Shown here piece by piece: positions 56,478-64,000 of a stretch of 64,000 nt of DNA (its first letter is position 1; every line of letters begins with the position of its first letter). The notes under the pieces are model-generated. The model worked only from the letters and a program-made list of their open reading frames with translations, did not search any database and was not told the origin of the DNA. The DNA lies in NCBI GenBank assembly GCA_043803205.1, contig JAZDKG010000116.1, forward strand, positions 31,316 to 95,315. The letters run 5' to 3'. The stretch comes from Planctomycetota bacterium. Its GTDB lineage: Bacteria > Planctomycetota > DG-23 > JAZDKG01. The position numbers and the translations under genes are program-made.

Positions 56478-58220
56478 CTAGAAGACCCCCGGGAGAATCC
56501 GTTCCGCTTTTTCCTTTAGATAATTCGATATCTCCGCGGCGGTCTTGAATTCCAGCGTCTGTCGCGCGGCTTCCCCCGCTTCCGCCAGCGTGACCGATCG
56601 GATGAGCTTCTTGATCTCCAGTATCACCCCCGGCGCCACGCTGAACTCCCGCAGTCCCATTCCCAAAAGCAGGATCGTAAACAGCGGATCCCCGCTCATC
56701 TCCCCGCACATCGCAACCGGAATGTTGCCCCGCTTCCCCGCTTCGATCACCGCCTGCACCAGCCGCAGGACCGCCGGATCCGTCGGGTTAAACAGCGACG
56801 CCACCCGCTCGTTCACACGGTCCACCGCTAACGTGTACTGAATTAGGTCGTTCGTCCCGATGCTGAAAAAATCACACTCCGCCGTGAAAAAGTCCGCCGC
56901 CACCGCCACCGAGGGCACCTCGACCATGATCCCTACCTTGATGTCCTCCTTGAAAGACGCCCCCTTCTGTCGCAGTTCGTCCTTGACCTCCTCCAGGATG
57001 CCCTTCGCCCGACGGACCTCCGACACGCTCGAGATCATCGGGAGCAGGATTTGAATATCCCCGAACGCGCTCGCACGCAAAATCGCCCGCAGCTGCACCT
57101 TGAACTGATCGACGTGCTGAAAGGAAAGCCGGATCGACCGCAGGCCCAGAAACGGGTTCCGCTCCTTCTGACTCCTGCTTTCTCGGAAGAACTTGTCCGC
57201 TCCTAGGTCCACCGTCCGAATCGTCAGCCGCCTCCCCCCAAGGTGCTTGATCGCCTGCAGGTACGCCTCAAAGTGGTCCTCCTCCGAAGGCTCCGTGGCC
57301 CGATTGAGGTAGAGAAACTCCGTGCGGTACAGGCCGATCCCCTCCGCCCCGTTCCGCACCCCCAACTCCACCTCCTGCGGAAATTCGATGTTCGCTAGAA
57401 TCCTCACCTCGCAGTTGTCCAGCGTCACCGCGGGCAGCGTCTGAAACTTCTTCAGATCCGCCTCGAGCTGGAGAAAGTTGTCCCGCAGCCCCTCGTACTT
57501 GTGAACCGTCGCCTCGTCCGGGTTCACGATCACGATGCCGTGGGTCCCGTCCAGGATCACCGTGTCCCCCATCGCGACGTCGCCCGTGACCGTCTCCAGC
57601 CCCACCACCGCCGGGATCCCAAGCGCCCGAGCGACAATGGCCGTATGACTGGTCCTGCCCCCCGCGTCCGTCGCGAACGCTAGCACCTTCTTCCGGTCCA
57701 GCATCGCCGTCTCGTCCGTGGTCAGGTCCCTGGCCACGAGGATCATCGGCTCCCGGCGCGACCGGTAGTGCATCCGGTGCTCTTCCCCTCGCAGCGCCCG
57801 CAGAAGTCGGTTCTCGATGTCCGTCAGATCCCGCACCCGGTCCGCAAGGTACGCGTCCTCGATCTTGCTGAACCGCTTCATGTACTTGCGGATGATGCGG
57901 CTTACCGCGTACTCGGCGGTGAAATTCTTCTCCGTGATGAGCTGACGCACCTCCAGGAGCAGCTTCTTGTCCTCTAACATCCGCAGGTGCGCCTGGAAGA
58001 TCCCGCTGTACTCCTCCCCGATCGTCTCCCGGACCTGGTCCGCCCGAAGCTGCACCTCTTGGTGCGCCCGCTCGACCGCCTGCTCGAACCTCGAAAGCTC
58101 CTGCTCCAGCTCGTCCCGCGCAAAGAACCGCCGCATGATCGGCTGCTCGTCGCTCTCCAGCACGAACGCCTTCCCCATCACCACCCCGGGAGAGACCCCG
58201 ATGCCTTTCTTGATCTCCAT
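56478..58220 (-). CDS. ptsI: Phosphoenolpyruvate-protein phosphotransferase (PTS enzyme I)
   Basis: 'GGRTSHTAIVARALGIPAVVG' (phospho-His) and the C-terminal PEP-utilising TIM barrel 'CGEM'. Confidence 0.9.
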   Translation of the reverse strand: MEIKKGIGVSPGVVMGKAFVLESDEQPIMRRFFARDELEQELSRFEQAVERAHQEVQLRADQVRETIGEEYSGIFQAHLRMLEDKKLLLEVRQLITEKNFTAEYAVSRIIRKYMKRFSKIEDAYLADRVRDLTDIENRLLRALRGEEHRMHYRSRREPMILVARDLTTDETAMLDRKKVLAFATDAGGRTSHTAIVARALGIPAVVGLETVTGDVAMGDTVILDGTHGIVIVNPDEATVHKYEGLRDNFLQLEADLKKFQTLPAVTLDNCEVRILANIEFPQEVELGVRNGAEGIGLYRTEFLYLNRATEPSEEDHFEAYLQAIKHLGGRRLTIRTVDLGADKFFRESRSQKERNPFLGLRSIRLSFQHVDQFKVQLRAILRASAFGDIQILLPMISSVSEVRRAKGILEEVKDELRQKGASFKEDIKVGIMVEVPSVAVAADFFTAECDFFSIGTNDLIQYTLAVDRVNERVASLFNPTDPAVLRLVQAVIEAGKRGNIPVAMCGEMSGDPLFTILLLGMGLREFSVAPGVILEIKKLIRSVTLAEAGEAARQTLEFKTAAEISNYLKEKAERILPGVF

Positions 58221-58238
58221 GAGCGCCTTCCGCTCTCT

Positions 58239-58520
58239 CTATTCCTCGTCGAACTTGCTCTCGACGAGCCTCTCGATCGCGTCCAGGGCTTCGCTCGCGT
58301 CCGGCCCCGCCGCCTTGAACATCAGCACCGTCTCCGCCGGCGCCGCTAAGGTCATCACGTCCAGGAAACTCTTCCCGTCCACCTCCCGCTCATCCCGGAC
58401 GATACGGATGTTGCTCTGGAACTTGTTCGCCAAATCCACCAGCAGCCGGATCGGCCGCAGGTGCAGCCCCAGCTTGTTCCGGATCACGATCTCTCTCAGT
58501 GTTTCCGCTGTTCCGCGCAT
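58239..58520 (-). CDS. ptsH: Phosphocarrier protein HPr
   Basis: 'NKLGLHLRP' (His15 region) and 'GKSFLDVMTL' (Ser46 region). Confidence 0.85.
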   Translation of the reverse strand: MRGTAETLREIVIRNKLGLHLRPIRLLVDLANKFQSNIRIVRDEREVDGKSFLDVMTLAAPAETVLMFKAAGPDASEALDAIERLVESKFDEE

Positions 58521-58551
58521 CGCCCACGACCATGAAAAAAAGTCCGCAGGA

Positions 58552-59025
58552 TCAGGAAAAAAGCTTCTCGTCCGCTTCCTGGAGGATGTCGTTCAGCTCC
58601 TCCAGACTCTTGGCGTTCTTCATGAACCGACAGAAGTGGTCGTCCCGGACGAGACACGAGATCTGCTCCAGCGCCTTCAGGTGCTCCGCCGGCTTGTTCG
58701 GCGGCGACAGCACCAGAAAGAACACGTGCACCGGCTCCCCGTCGATCGCCTTGAACTCCACCCCCTTCGACGACCGCCCCACCATCCCCACAAGCTTGTT
58801 CGTCGCCTCGGTCTTCGTGTGCGGGATCGCCACCCCCATCCCGATCCCCGTGCTCCCCAGTTCCTCCCGCTTCATCAGCGCGTCCACCACCGAGACGACG
58901 CCCCCCGACCCGAGCGCCCCAGCCTCCACGAGCGCCCGCACCAGCTCCTCGATCGCCTCCTGCTTCCCGGCGCTCGCCAACTCATACCGGGTGGCCGCCC
59001 GCACCAAAAAGTCCAGCAACTTCAT
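58552..59025 (-). CDS. ptsN: PTS EIIA-Ntr-type (fructose/mannitol EIIA-2 family) protein
   Basis: 'GMGVAIPHTK' active-site His region. 157 aa. Confidence 0.8.
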   Translation of the reverse strand: MKLLDFLVRAATRYELASAGKQEAIEELVRALVEAGALGSGGVVSVVDALMKREELGSTGIGMGVAIPHTKTEATNKLVGMVGRSSKGVEFKAIDGEPVHVFFLVLSPPNKPAEHLKALEQISCLVRDDHFCRFMKNAKSLEELNDILQEADEKLFS

Positions 59026-59083
59026 GCTCTCCTCCGTGGGTCTTGGCTACCCTCAATCCGCCCCGCCTTCGCGGGACGGGGGA

Positions 59084-59383
59084 TTATCGGCCCCTCTTAT
59101 CCTGGAGCTTGTCCTTGAACCGCGTCAACTGGTGCTCCGCCTTGTCGATCAAGAGATCCACCGCCGCGTGAAGGTCCGCGGCCGATGCCTCCGCCACGAG
59201 CGTGCTCCCCCGGACCACCCCGATGACGATCTCCGCGGACCTGGGCTCCGTGTGCCCGTCAAGAATCACCTTGATCCATTGGATCCTCCCGAAATACTTC
59301 TCCAGCTTCCCGACCTTCTGGGCCGCATACTCCCTTAGGTCGTCCGCTAGCTCTCCGTGTCGGCCAGTGATGCTGATCTTCAC
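59084..59383 (-). CDS. hpf: Ribosome hibernation promoting factor (short HPF/RaiA)
   Basis: 'MKISITGRHGELADDLREYAAQKVGKLEKYF' is the canonical sigma-54 modulation protein / HPF N-terminus. Confidence 0.85.
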   Translation of the reverse strand: MKISITGRHGELADDLREYAAQKVGKLEKYFGRIQWIKVILDGHTEPRSAEIVIGVVRGSTLVAEASAADLHAAVDLLIDKAEHQLTRFKDKLQDKRGR

Positions 59384-59623
59384 CCGAGCGTCTCCTTTTC
59401 CAACCGGCTTCTCGGCAATTACGGGGGCCGACCTCTCCGCGGATCCCCGCTCCTCACCGGGTCGCTCCGCCCAAGGCCGATCATAGAATAGGTAAGGGCG
59501 ATGAATCTGTCAACGCCAATCCCCTTCGCGCGCCATCCCTCCCCTCCTCCGATCCGTCTTGCAGTTGCTTCCACCCCCTCGGCGCGGTATCATGCCCCTA
59601 CTCGGCGCTTCCGGGGAACGCAA

Positions 59624-61045
59624 ATGGAAAAAACCATCGGCCCCTACCAGATCATCCAGGAGCTCGGCAAGGGCGGAATGGGCACCGTCTACCACGCCCA
59701 GCACGTCGACACCGGCGTCGAGGTCGCCCTCAAGGTCCTTCCCCCGGCCCTCTCCCGCGAAAGCCACTTCGTCCTGCGCTTCCGACGCGAAATCAACACC
59801 CTGAGACAGCTCGACCATCCCAACATCGTCCGCATCAGCGACACCGGACACGACGGCGAGCTCTACTACTACGCCATGGAGTTCGTCCTCGGCAGCTCCC
59901 TCGAAGAGATGATCACCTCCCAGGGCCGCTTCGAGGATCCCCACGAGGCCATCGCCATCCTCCGCAAGGTCGCCCGCGCCCTCGAGTTCGCCCACGCCAA
60001 GGGCATCATCCACCGCGACATCAAGCCCGCCAACATCCTGCTCGACCTCCAGGGAAACGTCAAACTCACCGACTTCGGCATCGCCAAGGCCCTCGAGGCC
60101 ACCCGCATGACCGTCACCGGCTCCGTCATGGGCACCGCCGAATACATGGCCCCCGAACAGGCCGAGGGACACTCCATCGACAAACGCACCGATGTCTACT
60201 CCCTCGGCGTCGTCTTCTACCGCATGGTCACCGGTCGGCTCCCCTTCACGGGCAGCACCTCCATCGAGATCATGAAACAGCTTCGCTTCAACATCCCTGA
60301 GTCCCCCAAGGCCCTCAACCCCACCATCACCAACAACCTCTCCGAGCTCATCCTCAAGATGCTTTCCAAGGAACCCAAGGATCGCTTCGAATCCATGGAG
60401 GCCCTCGTCCGACGGCTCGACCAGGTGGAAGAACAGATGCGCCGGGCTCGGGACTCCGCCGGGGCTAGACCCCGCACCGTCGCTGGCGCCAAGGCCCCCA
60501 AACCCTCCGCGCCCGAGGAGCCCCTCCCCGTGGCGAAGGTCGCCGCCTACGCCGTCGCCCTCGTCGCCATCGCCCTCGTCGTCTACTGGTGGTACGCCAA
60601 ACGCTCCCGCGCCGAATCGCCCGAAATCCTCCACGCGCGTGCGATCGAGCTCGCGGATGCGGGCGACTACTCGCAGGCGATCCAGCTCTTCTCGGACCTC
60701 CTGGACCACCCCAAGACCCCCCCCGACCTCCGCGAATCCGCCGCCGCCCGCCTGCGCGAGTGCGAAACCAGGGAGATCGAAAAGGAGAGGCGCCTGGAAA
60801 CCAAGCGCGTCGCCGCCGCCCGGCAAGAGGCCGCCCAGAGCGCCGAAAACCTCGCCGCCGGGATTTCGTACTACCGCGGCCTCGCGCTCCTGGGCGAGGG
60901 AAAACCCCAGGACGCGCGCTCGATCTTCGCCGCGATCGCCCTCCTCTATCCCGATACAAGCTGGGGCAAGAGCGCCGACGAGCGCCTGCGCATGATCGAC
61001 CTCGGCGTGCACGGCCCCCCCCAGTCCCAGCCCACTTCCCCCTGA
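59624..61045 (+). CDS. Serine/threonine protein kinase with C-terminal TM helix and TPR-like/Ala-rich extracytoplasmic region
   Basis: Start trimmed to MEKTIGPYQI, with 'gggga' RBS-like upstream. 'GKGGMGTVYHA', 'HRDIKPANILLD', 'DFGIAKA' and 'GTAEYMAPE'. Hydrophobic 'AAYAVALVAIALVVYWWY' at ~aa 305. Confidence 0.85.
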   Translation: MEKTIGPYQIIQELGKGGMGTVYHAQHVDTGVEVALKVLPPALSRESHFVLRFRREINTLRQLDHPNIVRISDTGHDGELYYYAMEFVLGSSLEEMITSQGRFEDPHEAIAILRKVARALEFAHAKGIIHRDIKPANILLDLQGNVKLTDFGIAKALEATRMTVTGSVMGTAEYMAPEQAEGHSIDKRTDVYSLGVVFYRMVTGRLPFTGSTSIEIMKQLRFNIPESPKALNPTITNNLSELILKMLSKEPKDRFESMEALVRRLDQVEEQMRRARDSAGARPRTVAGAKAPKPSAPEEPLPVAKVAAYAVALVAIALVVYWWYAKRSRAESPEILHARAIELADAGDYSQAIQLFSDLLDHPKTPPDLRESAAARLRECETREIEKERRLETKRVAAARQEAAQSAENLAAGISYYRGLALLGEGKPQDARSIFAAIALLYPDTSWGKSADERLRMIDLGVHGPPQSQPTSP

Positions 61046-61109
61046 CAGCATCACGCCTTTCGCAGGGCCTGGGCCTCCAGCATGCCTGCTCCCCCTCAGA
61101 CCTCAGGCC

Positions 61110-61772
61110 TCACCCCCTCGTCGGCAAGGCCGCGAACGGATTCGACCGCGCCTCTTCCCCCACCAACGTCGGCTCCCCGTGTCCGGGGTAGACGATCGTC
61201 TCCCCCGGCAGCGAGAAAAGCTTCTCCCGCACGGAGCGCACCAGAACGTCCATGTTCCCCCCGGGAAAATCCGTGCGGCCCACGCCCATCTGAAAAAGCG
61301 CGTCGCCCGAGAAGACGACCGGCGCTCCCCCGCTCTCCTGCGCGCTGAAATAGAGCGAGATCCCCCCGGTCGTGTGCCCCGGCGTCTCCAGCACCTCCCC
61401 CTTCGCCCCCCCCACCGTCACCTCGTCCCCCTCCCGCAGCGCCCGGTCCGCCGCCGGACTCTTCACCCGCCGCAGAAACAGCGCGCTTAAGTTCCGAATC
61501 GCGCTGGAGAGCATCGGCCCGTCCCCTTCGCCGATCACAAGCTCAGCCTCCGGGAACGCCTTCTTGATCGCCTCGTTCGCCCCGATGTGATCCACGTGCC
61601 CGTGCGTGTTGAGGACCGTCTCGACCTCGAGCTCCCGCCGCGCGATCTCCCCCAAGATCCTCTCCCCCTCGGCCCCAGGATCGATCACGAGCGCCTTACG
61701 CGAGCCCTTGGCGCGGACAAGGTAAGAGCACGTCAGAAATTCCCCCACCACCATCCTTACCACCTCGATCAT
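61110..61772 (-). CDS. MBL-fold metallo-hydrolase (hydroxyacylglutathione-hydrolase-like)
   Basis: 'THGHVDHIG' (HxHxDH) and downstream His/Asp ligands. Confidence 0.8.
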   Translation of the reverse strand: MIEVVRMVVGEFLTCSYLVRAKGSRKALVIDPGAEGERILGEIARRELEVETVLNTHGHVDHIGANEAIKKAFPEAELVIGEGDGPMLSSAIRNLSALFLRRVKSPAADRALREGDEVTVGGAKGEVLETPGHTTGGISLYFSAQESGGAPVVFSGDALFQMGVGRTDFPGGNMDVLVRSVREKLFSLPGETIVYPGHGEPTLVGEEARSNPFAALPTRG

Positions 61773-61776
61773 CCCG

Positions 61777-62967
61777 TCACCTCTGCGCCTGCGACAGGTA
61801 CTTCCGGATGATCCCCTGGATCTCCCATTCCTTCTCGTCCCCCGCCAAGCCCACGATCCGCCTCTCGCGCAGCGCGCTTTCGACCGTGTCCGATGCGTGC
61901 GCCCCGTTCTGCATCAGGTTCCGCCCGAAGTCGCTGCGCACCGTCCCTTCCGCGGCCTCGTCCGGGTTCGTTGAGCCCAGGATCCTCCGGATCTTGTCGA
62001 TCGCGTTTTCCCCCTGGTAGAGGAGCGCGAGACTCGTCGCCTTCCCCGGCGCGCTCCCTTCCCCCGCCCGGCACTCGCTCGGAGCCACGCCCGTCATGTA
62101 CGATACGATCTTCAGAAACTCGCATTCGGCGTTCGCGTCCTTGAGCTCGTCCGCGATCTTCTCGAACGTCTCCTCGTCGACCGGAAAGTCGAACGCCCCC
62201 TCCAGCGCCCCTCGCAGGTGCGCCATCACGTTCTTCCTGAGCCTCTCCACGAACTGCTGCCGCAGCGGCTCGTAGAACCGCCGCGCCTGCGCCACCGACA
62301 TCTTGAGAACCTTCGCCCCCACGATGTACAGCCCCGTCCGCGAGAAACGGTCGATGATGTTCCCGGGCCGACTCGAGGACCGCACGAAATTGTCCGGCTT
62401 GATGATCACGAGCGTCGTCTCCGGCTTCACCCCCTCCGGATACCGGATCACGCGCTCCAGCGCCCCCCCGTCCCGCGCCGCGTACCTCTCAAAGAGGGCG
62501 AGCTGCTTGTACAGCGTCTCGCTGTTCGTCGTCGTGAGCACCGCCGGCTCAAAGTAGATTATCTCCCCCGTCTCCAGCTCGACCATGTCCCCGAACGTGC
62601 CCCGCACCGTGTCCCCCGTGGGGCCCGTCCTCGACGCGAGCGACCCGATCACGCTGTCCTTCAGCGACCGCAGCGCGTCCGTCCCCTCGAACAACAGCAG
62701 CATCATCCGGTTGGTGATACCGAGGACGCTCGACGGCCTCAGGTGCTCGTTGATGTACTTCACGAGCACCCCCTTGATCTTCGGCTCGATCTCCTGCTCC
62801 TCCACCGAGCGCACATACTCGTCCACGAACGCGTCGCTCGGCGCGTACATGTGCGCCCCGACCAGCCGCAGCGTCGGCAGCGCCAACATCCTCCCGATGA
62901 TCCCGCCCGTCCGACTCTTCATCAGGCTGTAGGGCGTGATAAGCGCGTAGGCCAGCTCTTTAGCCAT
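61777..62967 (-). CDS. Tandem nucleoside-diphosphate-kinase-domain protein (degenerate N-terminal NDK-like half + catalytic C-terminal NDK half with insertion)
   Basis: C-terminal half has 'TLVIIKPDNF' (NDK IKPD), 'GTVRSDFG' and 'NGAHASDTVESALRE' (NDK catalytic His motif NxxHxSD). N-terminal half has 'YALITPYSL...GGIIGRML...GTDALRSLKD...GTFG', which looks NDK-like but has no His motif. Start chosen at MAKELAYA. Confidence 0.55.
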   Translation of the reverse strand: MAKELAYALITPYSLMKSRTGGIIGRMLALPTLRLVGAHMYAPSDAFVDEYVRSVEEQEIEPKIKGVLVKYINEHLRPSSVLGITNRMMLLLFEGTDALRSLKDSVIGSLASRTGPTGDTVRGTFGDMVELETGEIIYFEPAVLTTTNSETLYKQLALFERYAARDGGALERVIRYPEGVKPETTLVIIKPDNFVRSSSRPGNIIDRFSRTGLYIVGAKVLKMSVAQARRFYEPLRQQFVERLRKNVMAHLRGALEGAFDFPVDEETFEKIADELKDANAECEFLKIVSYMTGVAPSECRAGEGSAPGKATSLALLYQGENAIDKIRRILGSTNPDEAAEGTVRSDFGRNLMQNGAHASDTVESALRERRIVGLAGDEKEWEIQGIIRKYLSQAQR

Positions 62968-64000
62968 GGTCTGCTCCCCTGACCTCGAGGTTCTCTTCAT
63001 CCGCGTCGGCCCCCGCCGGCGCCTCCCGTCGTCCCGCAGTCGCGCCGCCGCGCAGCGTCACGTTTCCCTTGCCCACGATCTTCTCGACCTCCCCCAGGAA
63101 ACCCTCGTCCGCCCGCACCCGCAGCGCGTCCGCCACCCGGTACAGCGACGTCCGTCCCCCTCCCTCGTTGAAAAGAAGCAGCACCCGGCTCTTCCCCGGG
63201 TGCTTGCGCATGACGGCCCCCAGGTTCGCCAGCGTCTCCTCCCCGTGCGCCTCGCACCGCAGCGTGACCTCCACCGTCCCCGCAAGCTCCCTCGGCGCGT
63301 CCTCTAAGGTCACGATCCGCGACACCCGGATGCTCGGCTCCTGTCGCGCGAGATCCGCCCTCCCCGCCAAGAACACGATCCTGTGCGGGTCCACAAGCTC
63401 CCCCCACTTCTGCAGCTCCGAGGGAAACAGGACCGCCGAGCACGTCCCCGACAGATCCTCGAACGTGATCACGGCCATCCGCTCCCCGGCCTGCCTCCCG
63501 TTCCTCAGCGCCTTGAACCGCACGGACTCGATCCATCCCCCCACGACCACCTCGCTGTTGCTCGCAAGCTCCCCCAGCTCCGCGACGCTGTGCGTGGAGA
63601 AGGCGCGCAGCGTCTCCTCATACCGCGCCAAGGGATGGCTCGAAAGGTAGACCCCCACCGTCTCCTTCTCGTAGGCGAGCTTCTGGTTCTCAGGCCACTC
63701 GGGGACCTCCGCTAGACGATCGTCCTCGGGAACGCCTAACCCCTGTTCCTCCAGCGCGTCGAAGAGGCTCGTCTGCCCCTTGCGCCGATCGCTCTGACGC
63801 GAGCTCCCCCCCGCGATCGCCTTGTCGATCGCCGCCGCCAAGGCCGCTCGAGGCCCCCCCACCGAATCGAACGCCCCGCTCTTGATCAGCGTCTCGATCG
63901 CCGCCCGGTTGACCGCGTGAAGGTCCACGTTCTCGCAAAAGTGAAAGAGCGACCGGAATTCCCCCACCCTCTCGCGCGCGCCCACGATCGCCTCGATCGC
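62960..64000 (-). CDS. dnaE: DNA polymerase III alpha subunit, C-terminal portion (5' part lies beyond the window end)
   Basis: 'FCENVDLHAVNRAAIETLIKSGAFDS' (HhH region), 'GQTSLFD', and the OB-fold region 'GVYLSSHPL...VVGGWIESVRFKAL'. Reading frame is open to the window edge. Confidence 0.8.
   Translation of the reverse strand, partial: AIEAIVGARERVGEFRSLFHFCENVDLHAVNRAAIETLIKSGAFDSVGGPRAALAAAIDKAIAGGSSRQSDRRKGQTSLFDALEEQGLGVPEDDRLAEVPEWPENQKLAYEKETVGVYLSSHPLARYEETLRAFSTHSVAELGELASNSEVVVGGWIESVRFKALRNGRQAGERMAVITFEDLSGTCSAVLFPSELQKWGELVDPHRIVFLAGRADLARQEPSIRVSRIVTLEDAPRELAGTVEVTLRCEAHGEETLANLGAVMRKHPGKSRVLLLFNEGGGRTSLYRVADALRVRADEGFLGEVEKIVGKGNVTLRGGATAGRREAPAGADADEENLEVRGADHG

Follow-up and report, generated by a model that had tools for sequence, protein, structure and literature searches.

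The gene at positions 61777–62967 of the window, the 64,000-nucleotide stretch of Planctomycetota DNA analyzed here, probably encodes its lineage's nucleoside-diphosphate kinase (NDK), a derived, two-domain version of the enzyme that would still work as an NDP kinase and form a pseudo-dimer within one chain. Canonical NDKs have single-domain subunits of about 140–150 residues that form homo-tetramers or homo-hexamers, and the bacterial enzymes serve as a standard example of a small, single-domain enzyme that has to assemble into homo-oligomers to be active. The product of this gene has 396 residues (43.9 kDa by translation), and a degenerate NDK-like domain precedes the domain that carries the catalytic motifs. 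The features of the locus are the following.

62960–63985, minus strand: 3′ part of dnaE (DNA polymerase III alpha; HhH and OB domains), identified by Pfam HHH_6, the OB fold and NCBIfam PRK05673
61777–62967, minus strand: two-domain NDK gene, identified by open reading frame and translation; ATG at 62967–62965, TGA at 61779–61777
62440–62967, minus strand: N-terminal pseudo-NDK domain, residues 1–176, identified by profile, PDB and fold searches and by conservation
61852–62424, minus strand: C-terminal catalytic NDK domain, residues 182–372, identified by Pfam, phmmer and hhalign
62128–62256, minus strand: insertion 1 in the C-domain, residues ~238–280 (~43 residues), seen as an hhalign gap against canonical NDK
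62038–62085, minus strand: insertion 2, residues ~295–310 (~16 residues), between α2 and β3, from an hhalign gap, conservation and secondary structure
61897–61899, minus strand: CAC codon of His357, the predicted phospho-histidine, from PDB alignments and hhalign
61780–61851, minus strand: C-terminal tail, residues 373–396, from AF2 secondary structure and the alignment
61110–61772, minus strand: gene for an MBL-fold hydrolase of 220 residues, YcbL/glyoxalase-II-like (Pfam Lactamase_B, 105 bits)

A homology search found the protein to be identical to a database entry (P0001) labeled 'MAG: nucleoside-diphosphate kinase [Planctomycetota bacterium]', and more than 120 full-length homologs were found and aligned. 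Position 62967 was taken as the start because all homologs begin there, at M-x-x-E-L-A/T-Y, and because AGGGGAG lies upstream of this ATG; a longer reading frame from the ATG at 63000 was rejected on the same two grounds. The original prediction placed the gene at the correct coordinates and left its strand unstated. No open reading frame occupies this interval on the plus strand; the gene runs on the minus strand.

The C-terminal domain matches the Pfam NDK profile (PF00334) with 101.1 bits (cutoff 27, E = 5.8e-29). The match is to one domain in two stretches, with residues ~183–243 aligned to profile positions 1–66 and residues 311–371 to positions 68–128. Comparison with canonical NDKs by hhalign gives Prob 99.8% and E = 3e-29, and phmmer matches NDKs in the PDB at E = 3e-19, with 36% identity to S. 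aureus NDK. All three motif groups listed in the original prediction are present, namely IKPD (residues 189–192), GTVRSDFG (341–348) and N-x-x-H-x-SD in the form of NGAHASD (354–360), with His357 as the histidine. The active-site residues of NME1 have their equivalents in K190 (K12), Y232 (Y52), F284 (F60/61), R327 (R88), T333 (T94), R344 (R105), N354 (N115), H357 (H118), S359 (S120), and E368 (E129), where the alignment of F284 to the F60/F61 pair is uncertain by one residue. These ten canonical residues are all present and are 92–98% conserved among 161 family members, and His occupies position 357 in 157 of these. From these residues we infer that the two-domain protein has NDP kinase activity. 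A complete set of motifs is no guarantee of activity, because most of the tandem or divergent group II NDKs of eukaryotes show no measurable NDP kinase activity even if they autophosphorylate, and because NDK activity normally requires a multimer (PMC7024210). At the equivalog level of NCBIfam, all six NDK models score below their cutoffs, the best being NF001908 with 100.3 bits against 155.

The insertion of ~50 residues that had been noted in the C-terminal half was roughly right in size, but there are two insertions rather than one. Insertion 1 lengthens the nucleotide-clamping αA/α2 hairpin, which in the AF2 model consists of helices 225–242, 244–255, and 265–292. It is modeled as helical with pLDDT values of 86–93 and is found in all aligned homologs, with lower conservation (0.46). 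Within insertion 2, Pro307-Gly308 is conserved. The tail closes with a helix (residues 382–395) in which Y390-L391 is conserved, and its overall conservation is the lowest in the protein (0.37). Compared with canonical Ndk (PF00334, EC 2.7.4.6; E. coli 2hur, S. aureus 3q83), the planctomycete protein thus has 396 residues instead of ~140, an additional and apparently dead NDK domain at its N terminus, and insertions of 43 and 16 residues in and after the αA/α2 hairpin of the C-domain. It falls outside the description of NDKs as single-domain proteins of ~140–150 residues, and its oligomeric state is probably altered relative to the canonical enzyme.

The N-terminal 176 residues are NDK-derived, as seen by profile-profile comparison, by a profile search of the PDB, and by a fold search with a model of the domain. 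Profile methods were needed because BLASTP of the N-terminal half directly against the C-terminal half gave weak matches only (E = 0.013). By hhalign, the N-domain profile matches the C-domain profile with Prob 95% (E ~ 1e-8) and canonical NDKs with Prob 89% (E = 3e-7), and all 23 PDB matches of the N-domain profile are NDKs (best E = 1e-4). The secondary structure, β-α-β-β-α-β plus the αA/α2 hairpin, is that of the NDK fold. When the domain was modeled alone (AF2, pLDDT 83), the top 50 Foldseek matches were all NDKs, with TMt values of 0.57–0.73. The two PF00334 hits by which the original prediction was to be confirmed were not obtained; Pfam reports one NDK domain only in the window protein, and residues 1–176 alone have no Pfam match at E ≤ 10. 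A single Pfam domain together with an N-terminal half from an unrelated family had been named as the outcome that would overturn the prediction. The first of these was found and the second was not: assignment of the N-terminal half to an unrelated family was rejected, since neither Pfam nor NCBIfam matches it to anything else at E ≤ 10. In one relative (P0135), the N-domain by itself passes the Pfam NDK threshold, with 30.7 bits (cutoff 27).

The catalytic residues of this domain are lost. The position of the catalytic Lys is occupied by Thr11, and none of the 161 members has Lys there. FEPAV stands where NDKs have HGSD, with the catalytic Asn and His gone, and the absence of the catalytic His motif from the N-terminal half had been correctly anticipated. 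Across the 161 members, the equivalents of K12, N115, and H118 score as lost, and the position equivalent to the His holds Y, H, or F, with no conserved His. Equivalents of R88 and T94 are also missing by hhalign, whereas those of Y52 and R105 are kept as Y51 and R122. The domain nevertheless has a mean conservation of 0.60 in the 161 family members and conserved motifs of its own (ITPYS, KSRTGG, GDTVRGT(Y/F)GD, FEPAV, and DGG), which are under strong purifying selection. Near-invariant residues are P12, K17, R19, G21, R26, R122, and F139-E140-P141-A142. The junction of α2 and β3 contains an insertion (residues 76–87) with conserved R77, N86, and R87, and the Kpn-loop equivalent (residues 112–124) is of low model confidence and variable length. 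With its fold retained, its catalytic residues lost, and selection maintained, the N-domain is a pseudo-NDK domain, predicted from its sequence to be dead as a kinase and yet strongly conserved. A degenerate NDK-like domain followed by a catalytic one, as originally proposed, is what profiles, structure, and family-wide conservation agree upon.

In the pseudo-dimer that we favor, the C-domain would act by the standard ping-pong mechanism, the γ-phosphate of an NTP being passed to His357 and from there to any (d)NDP, and the ~43-residue helical insertion would enlarge the nucleotide-clamping hairpin of this domain. Ordinary NDKs pair two identical subunits. Here, the N-domain would be a dead copy of the NDK fold, arisen probably by internal duplication, that packs rigidly on the catalytic domain and makes the single chain a built-in pseudo-dimer. 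The dead domain would then stabilize or position the catalytic domain, and it may also bind a regulator or partner protein. An origin by duplication is weakly suggested, because the match of the N-domain to the C-domain (1e-8) barely beats its match to canonical NDKs (3e-7) and the depths of the profiles differ. The motif S-R-x-G-x-I-I-x-R recurs in both domains, as does an insertion at the α2/β3 junction, and these hint in the same direction.

It is possible, though we think it distinctly less probable than a structural role, that the N-domain binds a ligand allosterically or has become newly catalytic, with its former active-site cleft remade by newly conserved residues to accept a nucleotide, phosphorylated metabolite, or phospho-acceptor, so that it regulates or extends the kinase. 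The most conserved parts of the domain are three segments that line the active site in NDKs, with ITPYS at the position of IKPD, GDTVRGTxGD at that of TIRGDFG, and FEPAV at that of HGSD, and the equivalents of Y52 and R105 are retained as Y51 and R122. Invariant charged residues (K17, R19, R26, D119, D127, and E140) are hard to ascribe to fold stability alone. However, the residues that hold phosphate in NDKs (K12, R88, T94, N115, and H118) are gone, and confidence in the Kpn-loop equivalent is low and its length varies. An interface formed by these segments with the catalytic domain could also produce the same pattern of conservation.

The two-domain NDK is a fixed and widespread architecture within Planctomycetota and is standard in anammox bacteria and their relatives. 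The search for homologous tandem-NDK proteins recommended with the original prediction found the architecture in at least 592 GTDB species, including all anammox genera, and both domains are encoded in 80 of the 80 GTDB loci examined. The statement that tandem NDKs are unusual in bacteria thus holds for bacteria generally but not inside this phylum. The longer matches of odd length contain no additional Pfam domain. The search for a second, canonical ndk covered this window and the 80 loci and found none. A whole bacterial lineage, to which the anammox bacteria with their environmental and industrial importance belong, departs from the textbook single-domain NDK, in that the homo-oligomer of single domains appears to be replaced by a dead and a live domain fused covalently, with an enlarged nucleotide clamp.

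The database label of the family is already plain 'nucleoside-diphosphate kinase / ndk', a name that hides a conserved domain of 176 residues that Pfam does not recognize in most members. Literature searches for bacterial tandem NDKs, anammox NDKs, and an NDK-dnaE operon returned nothing relevant, and the literature searched holds no example of a bacterial NDK with a pseudoenzyme domain fused to an active paralogue. We found no paper that describes the two-domain layout of this gene, which is already annotated as an NDK. As in other pseudoenzyme domains fused to an active paralogue, the fold is kept and the catalytic residues are lost while purifying selection persists, a comparison that describes a class and not a family. 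Pyrobaculum aerophilum NDK (1xqi, 182 residues) also carries lineage-specific insertions, but this archaeal protein is a single domain with no pseudo-domain.

The gene lies, as had been noted, directly downstream of dnaE and upstream of an MBL hydrolase. The TAA stop of dnaE (62962–62960), a gene that continues beyond the edge of the window, overlaps the NDK start codon (ATGGCTAA) with an overlap of 8 nt, and at this locus the NDK gene is predicted to be translationally coupled to dnaE. The MBL hydrolase gene begins 4 nt past the NDK stop. A scan of the dnaE-NDK-MBL region found no promoter-like site, and a terminator scan gave four terminator-like matches, all within coding sequence and none between the three genes. 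The MBL hydrolase gene is a conserved operon partner of the NDK gene: it lies directly downstream on the same strand in 60 of the 72 related loci with enough flank, and these loci span about 45–60% protein identity. Linkage to dnaE is less general, as 33 of 70 related loci have dnaE immediately upstream and the others, Brocadia among them, lack this linkage. Coupling to dnaE here and the MBL gene across the family point to co-expression with the replicase, for dNTP supply, and to a putative functional link with the hydrolase. The MBL pairing and the frequent dnaE coupling suggest ties, open to testing, with replication or the turnover of phospho-His.

This gene neighborhood, with the MBL gene so often downstream and the putative coupling to dnaE in the window, is also what would be expected if the main job of the protein were that of a phospho-His relay, protein kinase, or replisome accessory acting with the MBL hydrolase and DnaE and not that of bulk NTP synthesis; the hydrolase could, for example, have the phospho-enzyme or a nucleotide by-product as its substrate. 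Non-canonical roles are known for group II NDKs of eukaryotes, and dedicated phospho-His phosphatases regulate NDKs elsewhere, namely SixA in E. coli (PMC12934123) and the C-terminal domain of MutT1 in mycobacteria (PMC11784022). We consider such a role doubtful, since all residues for ordinary NDP kinase chemistry are conserved, interaction cannot be read from gene order alone, and the dnaE linkage is missing in about half of the loci. In addition, the closest solved relatives of the MBL protein (7ev5 and 2xf4 are the closest PDB entries) are thiolesterases of the YcbL/glyoxalase-II type, a housekeeping class for which we know of no action on phospho-His. A reading that combines these elements, in which the N-domain is a rebuilt site for ligand sensing or partner docking in a Planctomycetota-specific module for (d)NTP supply or phospho-His with the MBL hydrolase and often DnaE, and resembles NME7 by convergence, seems to us similarly improbable. 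In the boldest version of a sensing module, the tandem NDKs of bacteria and of eukaryotes would have a common ancestry.

The resemblance to NME7 noted in the original prediction is real, in that both proteins carry two tandem NDK-fold domains on a single chain by profile, fold, and model evidence. NME7, or FAP67 in Chlamydomonas, is a group II NDK bound inside ciliary doublet microtubules, whereas the planctomycete protein is bacterial, has no axonemal context, and is the product of a gene that shares an operon with dnaE and the MBL hydrolase gene. NME7 also has an N-terminal DM10 domain; the planctomycete protein has no DM10 match in Pfam, and β1 of its NDK fold starts at residue 4. The first NDK domain of NME7 is active (autophosphorylating) and the second degenerate (PMC7024210), the reverse of the order seen here, where the first is apparently dead and the second intact. 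We take the likeness to be convergence. Shared ancestry with NME7/FAP67, by transfer between eukaryotes and Planctomycetota or from a common tandem-NDK ancestor instead of an independent duplication, is very unlikely: by sequence, single-domain NDKs of bacteria and archaea match the catalytic domain better (E = 3e-19, with 36% identity to S. aureus NDK) than NME7-type chains do (E = 1.6e-11, 17–23% identity), the missing DM10 and reversed order are accompanied by lineage-specific insertions, and convergence is expected to give the same packing if fused folds reproduce the universal dimer geometry of NDKs. The family offers a natural system in bacteria in which to ask why NME7 and other tandem NDKs retain a dead domain, how oligomerization constrains NDK activity, and how pseudoenzyme domains gain conserved surfaces.

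That the two-domain reading frame is an artefact, with pieces fused in assembly or by a frameshift or with the start placed too far upstream, might be supposed from the single Pfam domain and the many short database entries, but this is refuted by the same full-length protein in 80 of 80 independent genomes, by strong conservation of the N-domain at the protein level, by the fragmentary nature of the short entries, and by mass spectrometry of a 44-kDa product in Kuenenia. The existence of stand-alone N-domain proteins was likewise rejected, as the 95 short matches among the 150 representatives listed are mostly truncated or frameshifted pieces. The two-domain NDK is expressed in Kuenenia: 'ndk' of Kuenenia stuttgartiensis (Q1PZI4; UniProt evidence level PE=4) was detected by proteomics as a protein of 44,070 Da with ~58% coverage (supplement of PMC8027424). 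This mass agrees with that of the 396-residue Kuenenia orthologs, which is 44.1–44.3 kDa.

The NDK gene of the window encodes a tandem protein in which an N-terminal NDK domain that has lost its catalytic residues (about residues 1–176) precedes a C-terminal one that retains them (about residues 182–372). The best explanation, which we hold to be likely, is that this protein serves as the NDP kinase of its lineage, one chain pairing a live NDK domain with a dead one as an internal pseudo-dimer that has an enlarged nucleotide clamp. The original prediction of two tandem NDK-like domains, only the second catalytic, holds in its essentials. The protein belongs to the NDK superfamily and is neither a canonical Ndk equivalog nor a member of the NME7 family. 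Literature searches turned up no description of a tandem NDK or a pseudo-NDK from bacteria.

The ORF predicted at 61777–62967 is present, encodes 396 residues, and lies on the minus strand; a plus-strand reading of this interval is ruled out by its many stops. Two start codons are available, ATG 63000 (407 aa) and ATG 62967 (396 aa). We take the latter as the start and set the 407-aa ORF aside because the homologs in the alignment all begin M-x-x-E-L-(A/T)-Y and because AGGGGAG lies upstream of ATG 62967. The neighbors are those originally named, dnaE upstream and an MBL hydrolase downstream.

Genes adjoining the NDK gene
Upstream of the NDK gene, minus strand: 3′ end of dnaE (DNA polymerase III alpha by NCBIfam), including its HhH and OB domains
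61777–62967, minus strand: two-domain NDK, 396 aa
61110–61772, minus strand: MBL-fold hydrolase, 220 aa, beginning 4 nt past the NDK stop codon

The TAA stop codon of dnaE (62962–62960) overlaps the NDK start codon (ATGGCTAA). A consensus scan of 60900–64000 found no promoter-like sites, and its four terminator-like matches all fall within coding sequence, none between the dnaE, NDK, and MBL genes. All three appear to belong to a single transcription unit.

The assignment of the C-terminal half as a complete NDK domain is borne out by a Pfam NDK match of 101 bits (cutoff 27), a single domain in two stretches (aa ~183–243 on profile positions 1–66 and aa 311–371 on 68–128), and by phmmer against the PDB, which matches NDKs exclusively, also in two pieces (best E 3e-19). 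Alignment of a 40-sequence family profile with four canonical NDKs by hhalign (Prob 99.8%, E 3e-29) confirms an insertion, predicted as one block of ~50 aa, and divides it into two gaps, of about 43 residues between αA and α2 (aa 238–280) and of about 16 residues between α2 and β3 (aa 295–310). The equivalents of NME1 Lys12, Tyr52, Phe60/61, Arg88, Thr94, Arg105, Asn115, His118, Ser120, and Glu129 are, by alignment, Lys190, Tyr232, Phe284, Arg327, Thr333, Arg344, Asn354, His357, Ser359, and Glu368. These ten are 92–98% conserved among 161 non-identical full-length family members, with His at position 357 in 157. In the AlphaFold2 model of the full protein (pLDDT 88.1, pTM 0.88), the first insertion is a confident helical arm (helices 225–242, 244–255, and 265–292) that, as modeled, lengthens the hairpin serving as the nucleotide-base clamp of ordinary NDKs.

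The N-terminal half is, by profile and structure methods, clearly an NDK-derived, catalytically dead domain. Two Pfam NDK matches had been expected, and here there is one, residues 1–181 alone having no Pfam match even at E ≤ 10; in some relatives Pfam NDK does match the N-domain directly, above the cutoff in the relative P0135 (30.7 bits). BLASTP of the two halves gives weak in-register matches (E 0.013), and hhalign matches the N-profile to the C-profile over its full length (Prob 95%, E about 1e-8) and to canonical NDKs (Prob 88.7%, E 3e-7). All 23 hmmsearch matches of the N-profile in the PDB are NDKs (best E 1e-4, N-domain 4–125 against NDK 2–107). Modeled alone (pLDDT 83, pTM 0.82), the domain retrieves NDKs as all of the top 50 Foldseek matches (E about 1e-4, TMt 0.57–0.73), and its modeled secondary structure follows the NDK order β1, α0, α1, β2, αA, α2, β3, α3, loop, β4, α4.

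The catalytic His motif is missing from this half, as predicted. The N-x-x-H-G-S-D strand has become x-x-x-(Y/H/F)-F-E-P-A-V, with Tyr in 113, His in 30, and Phe in 11 of 161 members. Thr11 replaces Lys12, no member having Lys there; Arg88 and Thr94 lack conserved equivalents; and of the NME1 active-site equivalents only Tyr52 (Tyr51) and Arg105 (Arg122) are kept. Residue 138 (window about 62554–62556) aligns nearest the catalytic His and is His in the 30 members with the form KHFEPAV; four members have N-x-x-H in the N-domain, and none of the His138 members has the catalytic Lys. This His may have survived from the ancestral motif. Despite the lost residues, the N-domain is strongly constrained: its mean conservation is 0.60, compared with 0.71–0.74 for the catalytic core and 0.37–0.46 for the insertions and tail, and Pro12, Lys17, Arg19, Gly21, Arg26, Arg122, and Phe139-Glu140-Pro141-Ala142 are near-invariant. 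The conserved motifs ITPYS, GDTVRGTxGD, and FEPAV fall where an NDK has the three segments lining its active site. That placement fits a rebuilt pocket and an interface with the catalytic domain equally well.

The high pTM of the full model (0.88) argues for a defined interdomain arrangement. In Foldseek, the model matches axonemal NME7-type chains (7ung_5, 8iyj_5, 9cpc_4V, 8g2z_1M, and others) at TMq 0.48–0.57 and E about 1e-11 over about 380 alignment columns, compared with a TMq of only about 0.30–0.33 for single-domain NDKs. The predicted packing is therefore like that found in the eukaryotic tandem NDK. In sequence, by contrast, the catalytic domain stands nearer to bacterial/archaeal NDKs (E 3e-19, 36% identity) than to NME7-type chains (E 1.6e-11, 17–23%), and a Pfam scan of the protein shows no DM10 domain. 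The domain order is also reversed: NME7, in which autophosphorylation is confined to the first domain (PMC7024210), has an active domain followed by a dead one, whereas the planctomycete protein has the dead domain first. We read the likeness as convergence, the fusion of two NDK folds probably recreating the general NDK dimer. Common to both domains are the motif S-R-x-G-x-I-I-x-R and, at the α2/β3 junction, an insertion, a weak hint that they may derive from internal duplication.

Far from being a one-off, the two-domain NDK forms a family; it is expressed and widespread, and its operon is conserved. NCBI lists the exact protein under the name 'MAG: nucleoside-diphosphate kinase [Planctomycetota bacterium]', and the homolog search yielded >120 full-length homologs (389–415 aa, 52–74% identity) from Brocadiia, Brocadiales, and other Planctomycetota MAGs. 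A scan with patterns specific to the N-domain, covering a single genome for each GTDB species, places it in at least 592 species, including Brocadia (with the complete Ca. B. pituitae genome), Kuenenia, Scalindua, Jettenia, and many Phycisphaerae/Planctomycetota MAGs. The protein is encoded with both domains at each of the 80 loci retrieved. Searched exhaustively by HMM with the N-profile, 1.84 billion representatives gave only 415 clusters at E ≤ 1e-3, whose full-length members cluster at about 385–396 aa. Short database entries were rejected as separate proteins, being fragments, truncated or frameshifted, and odd-length entries contain no extra domain. In the listed part of the PMC8027424 supplement, the K. 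stuttgartiensis 'ndk' (Q1PZI4) was detected by proteomics at about 58% coverage, and its mass of 44,070 Da matches the 396-aa Kuenenia orthologs (44.1–44.3 kDa); it is the only NDK named among the entries listed there, which is not proof of a sole NDK. Seven loci (L011, L052, L065, L066, L072, L073, and L077) come from MAGs labeled 'Anaerolineales' or 'Thermodesulfobacteriota', which points either to bins that are mislabeled or contaminated or to transfer between lineages (horizontal transfer).

In 60 of the 72 loci whose flank is long enough, the MBL gene immediately follows the NDK gene on the same strand, at a median alignment gap of about 28 nt; in 33 of 70, dnaE immediately precedes the NDK gene. 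In Brocadia-type loci (L013, L014, L015, L019, L022, L023, L026, and others), dnaE is nonadjacent or >500 nt upstream and the MBL gene is still adjacent, so that the NDK-MBL pair is what is conserved at the core, linkage to dnaE being secondary. The conservation of the pair suggests that the two genes are co-regulated or linked in function. Among solved structures, the MBL protein is most closely related to YcbL/glyoxalase-II-type enzymes (7ev5, 2xf4). Phospho-His phosphatases regulate NDK in other bacteria (PMC12934123, PMC11784022), and a similar role for the MBL enzyme would be speculative. The hydrolase (61110–61772, minus strand) also has a faint, sub-threshold Pfam match to the anti-Pycsar cyclic-nucleotide phosphodiesterase family Apyc1 (E 0.053; 13 bits, where the cutoff is 50), which probably reflects no more than the common MBL fold.

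A nitrogen-PTS-type cluster, with no sugar permease evident nearby, occupies 56478–59383 on the minus strand.

Genes beyond the MBL hydrolase
59501–61045, plus strand: Ser/Thr protein kinase, 514 aa, one hydrophobic segment predicted, TPR region at the C terminus
59084–59383, minus strand: ribosome hibernation factor HPF, PTS-type cluster
58552–59025, minus strand: EIIA-2/PtsN-like protein, PTS-type cluster
58239–58520, minus strand: HPr, PTS-type cluster
56478–58220, minus strand: enzyme I PtsI, PTS-type cluster

The Ser/Thr kinase gene sits between this cluster and the MBL-ndk-dnaE operon, on the strand opposite to both.
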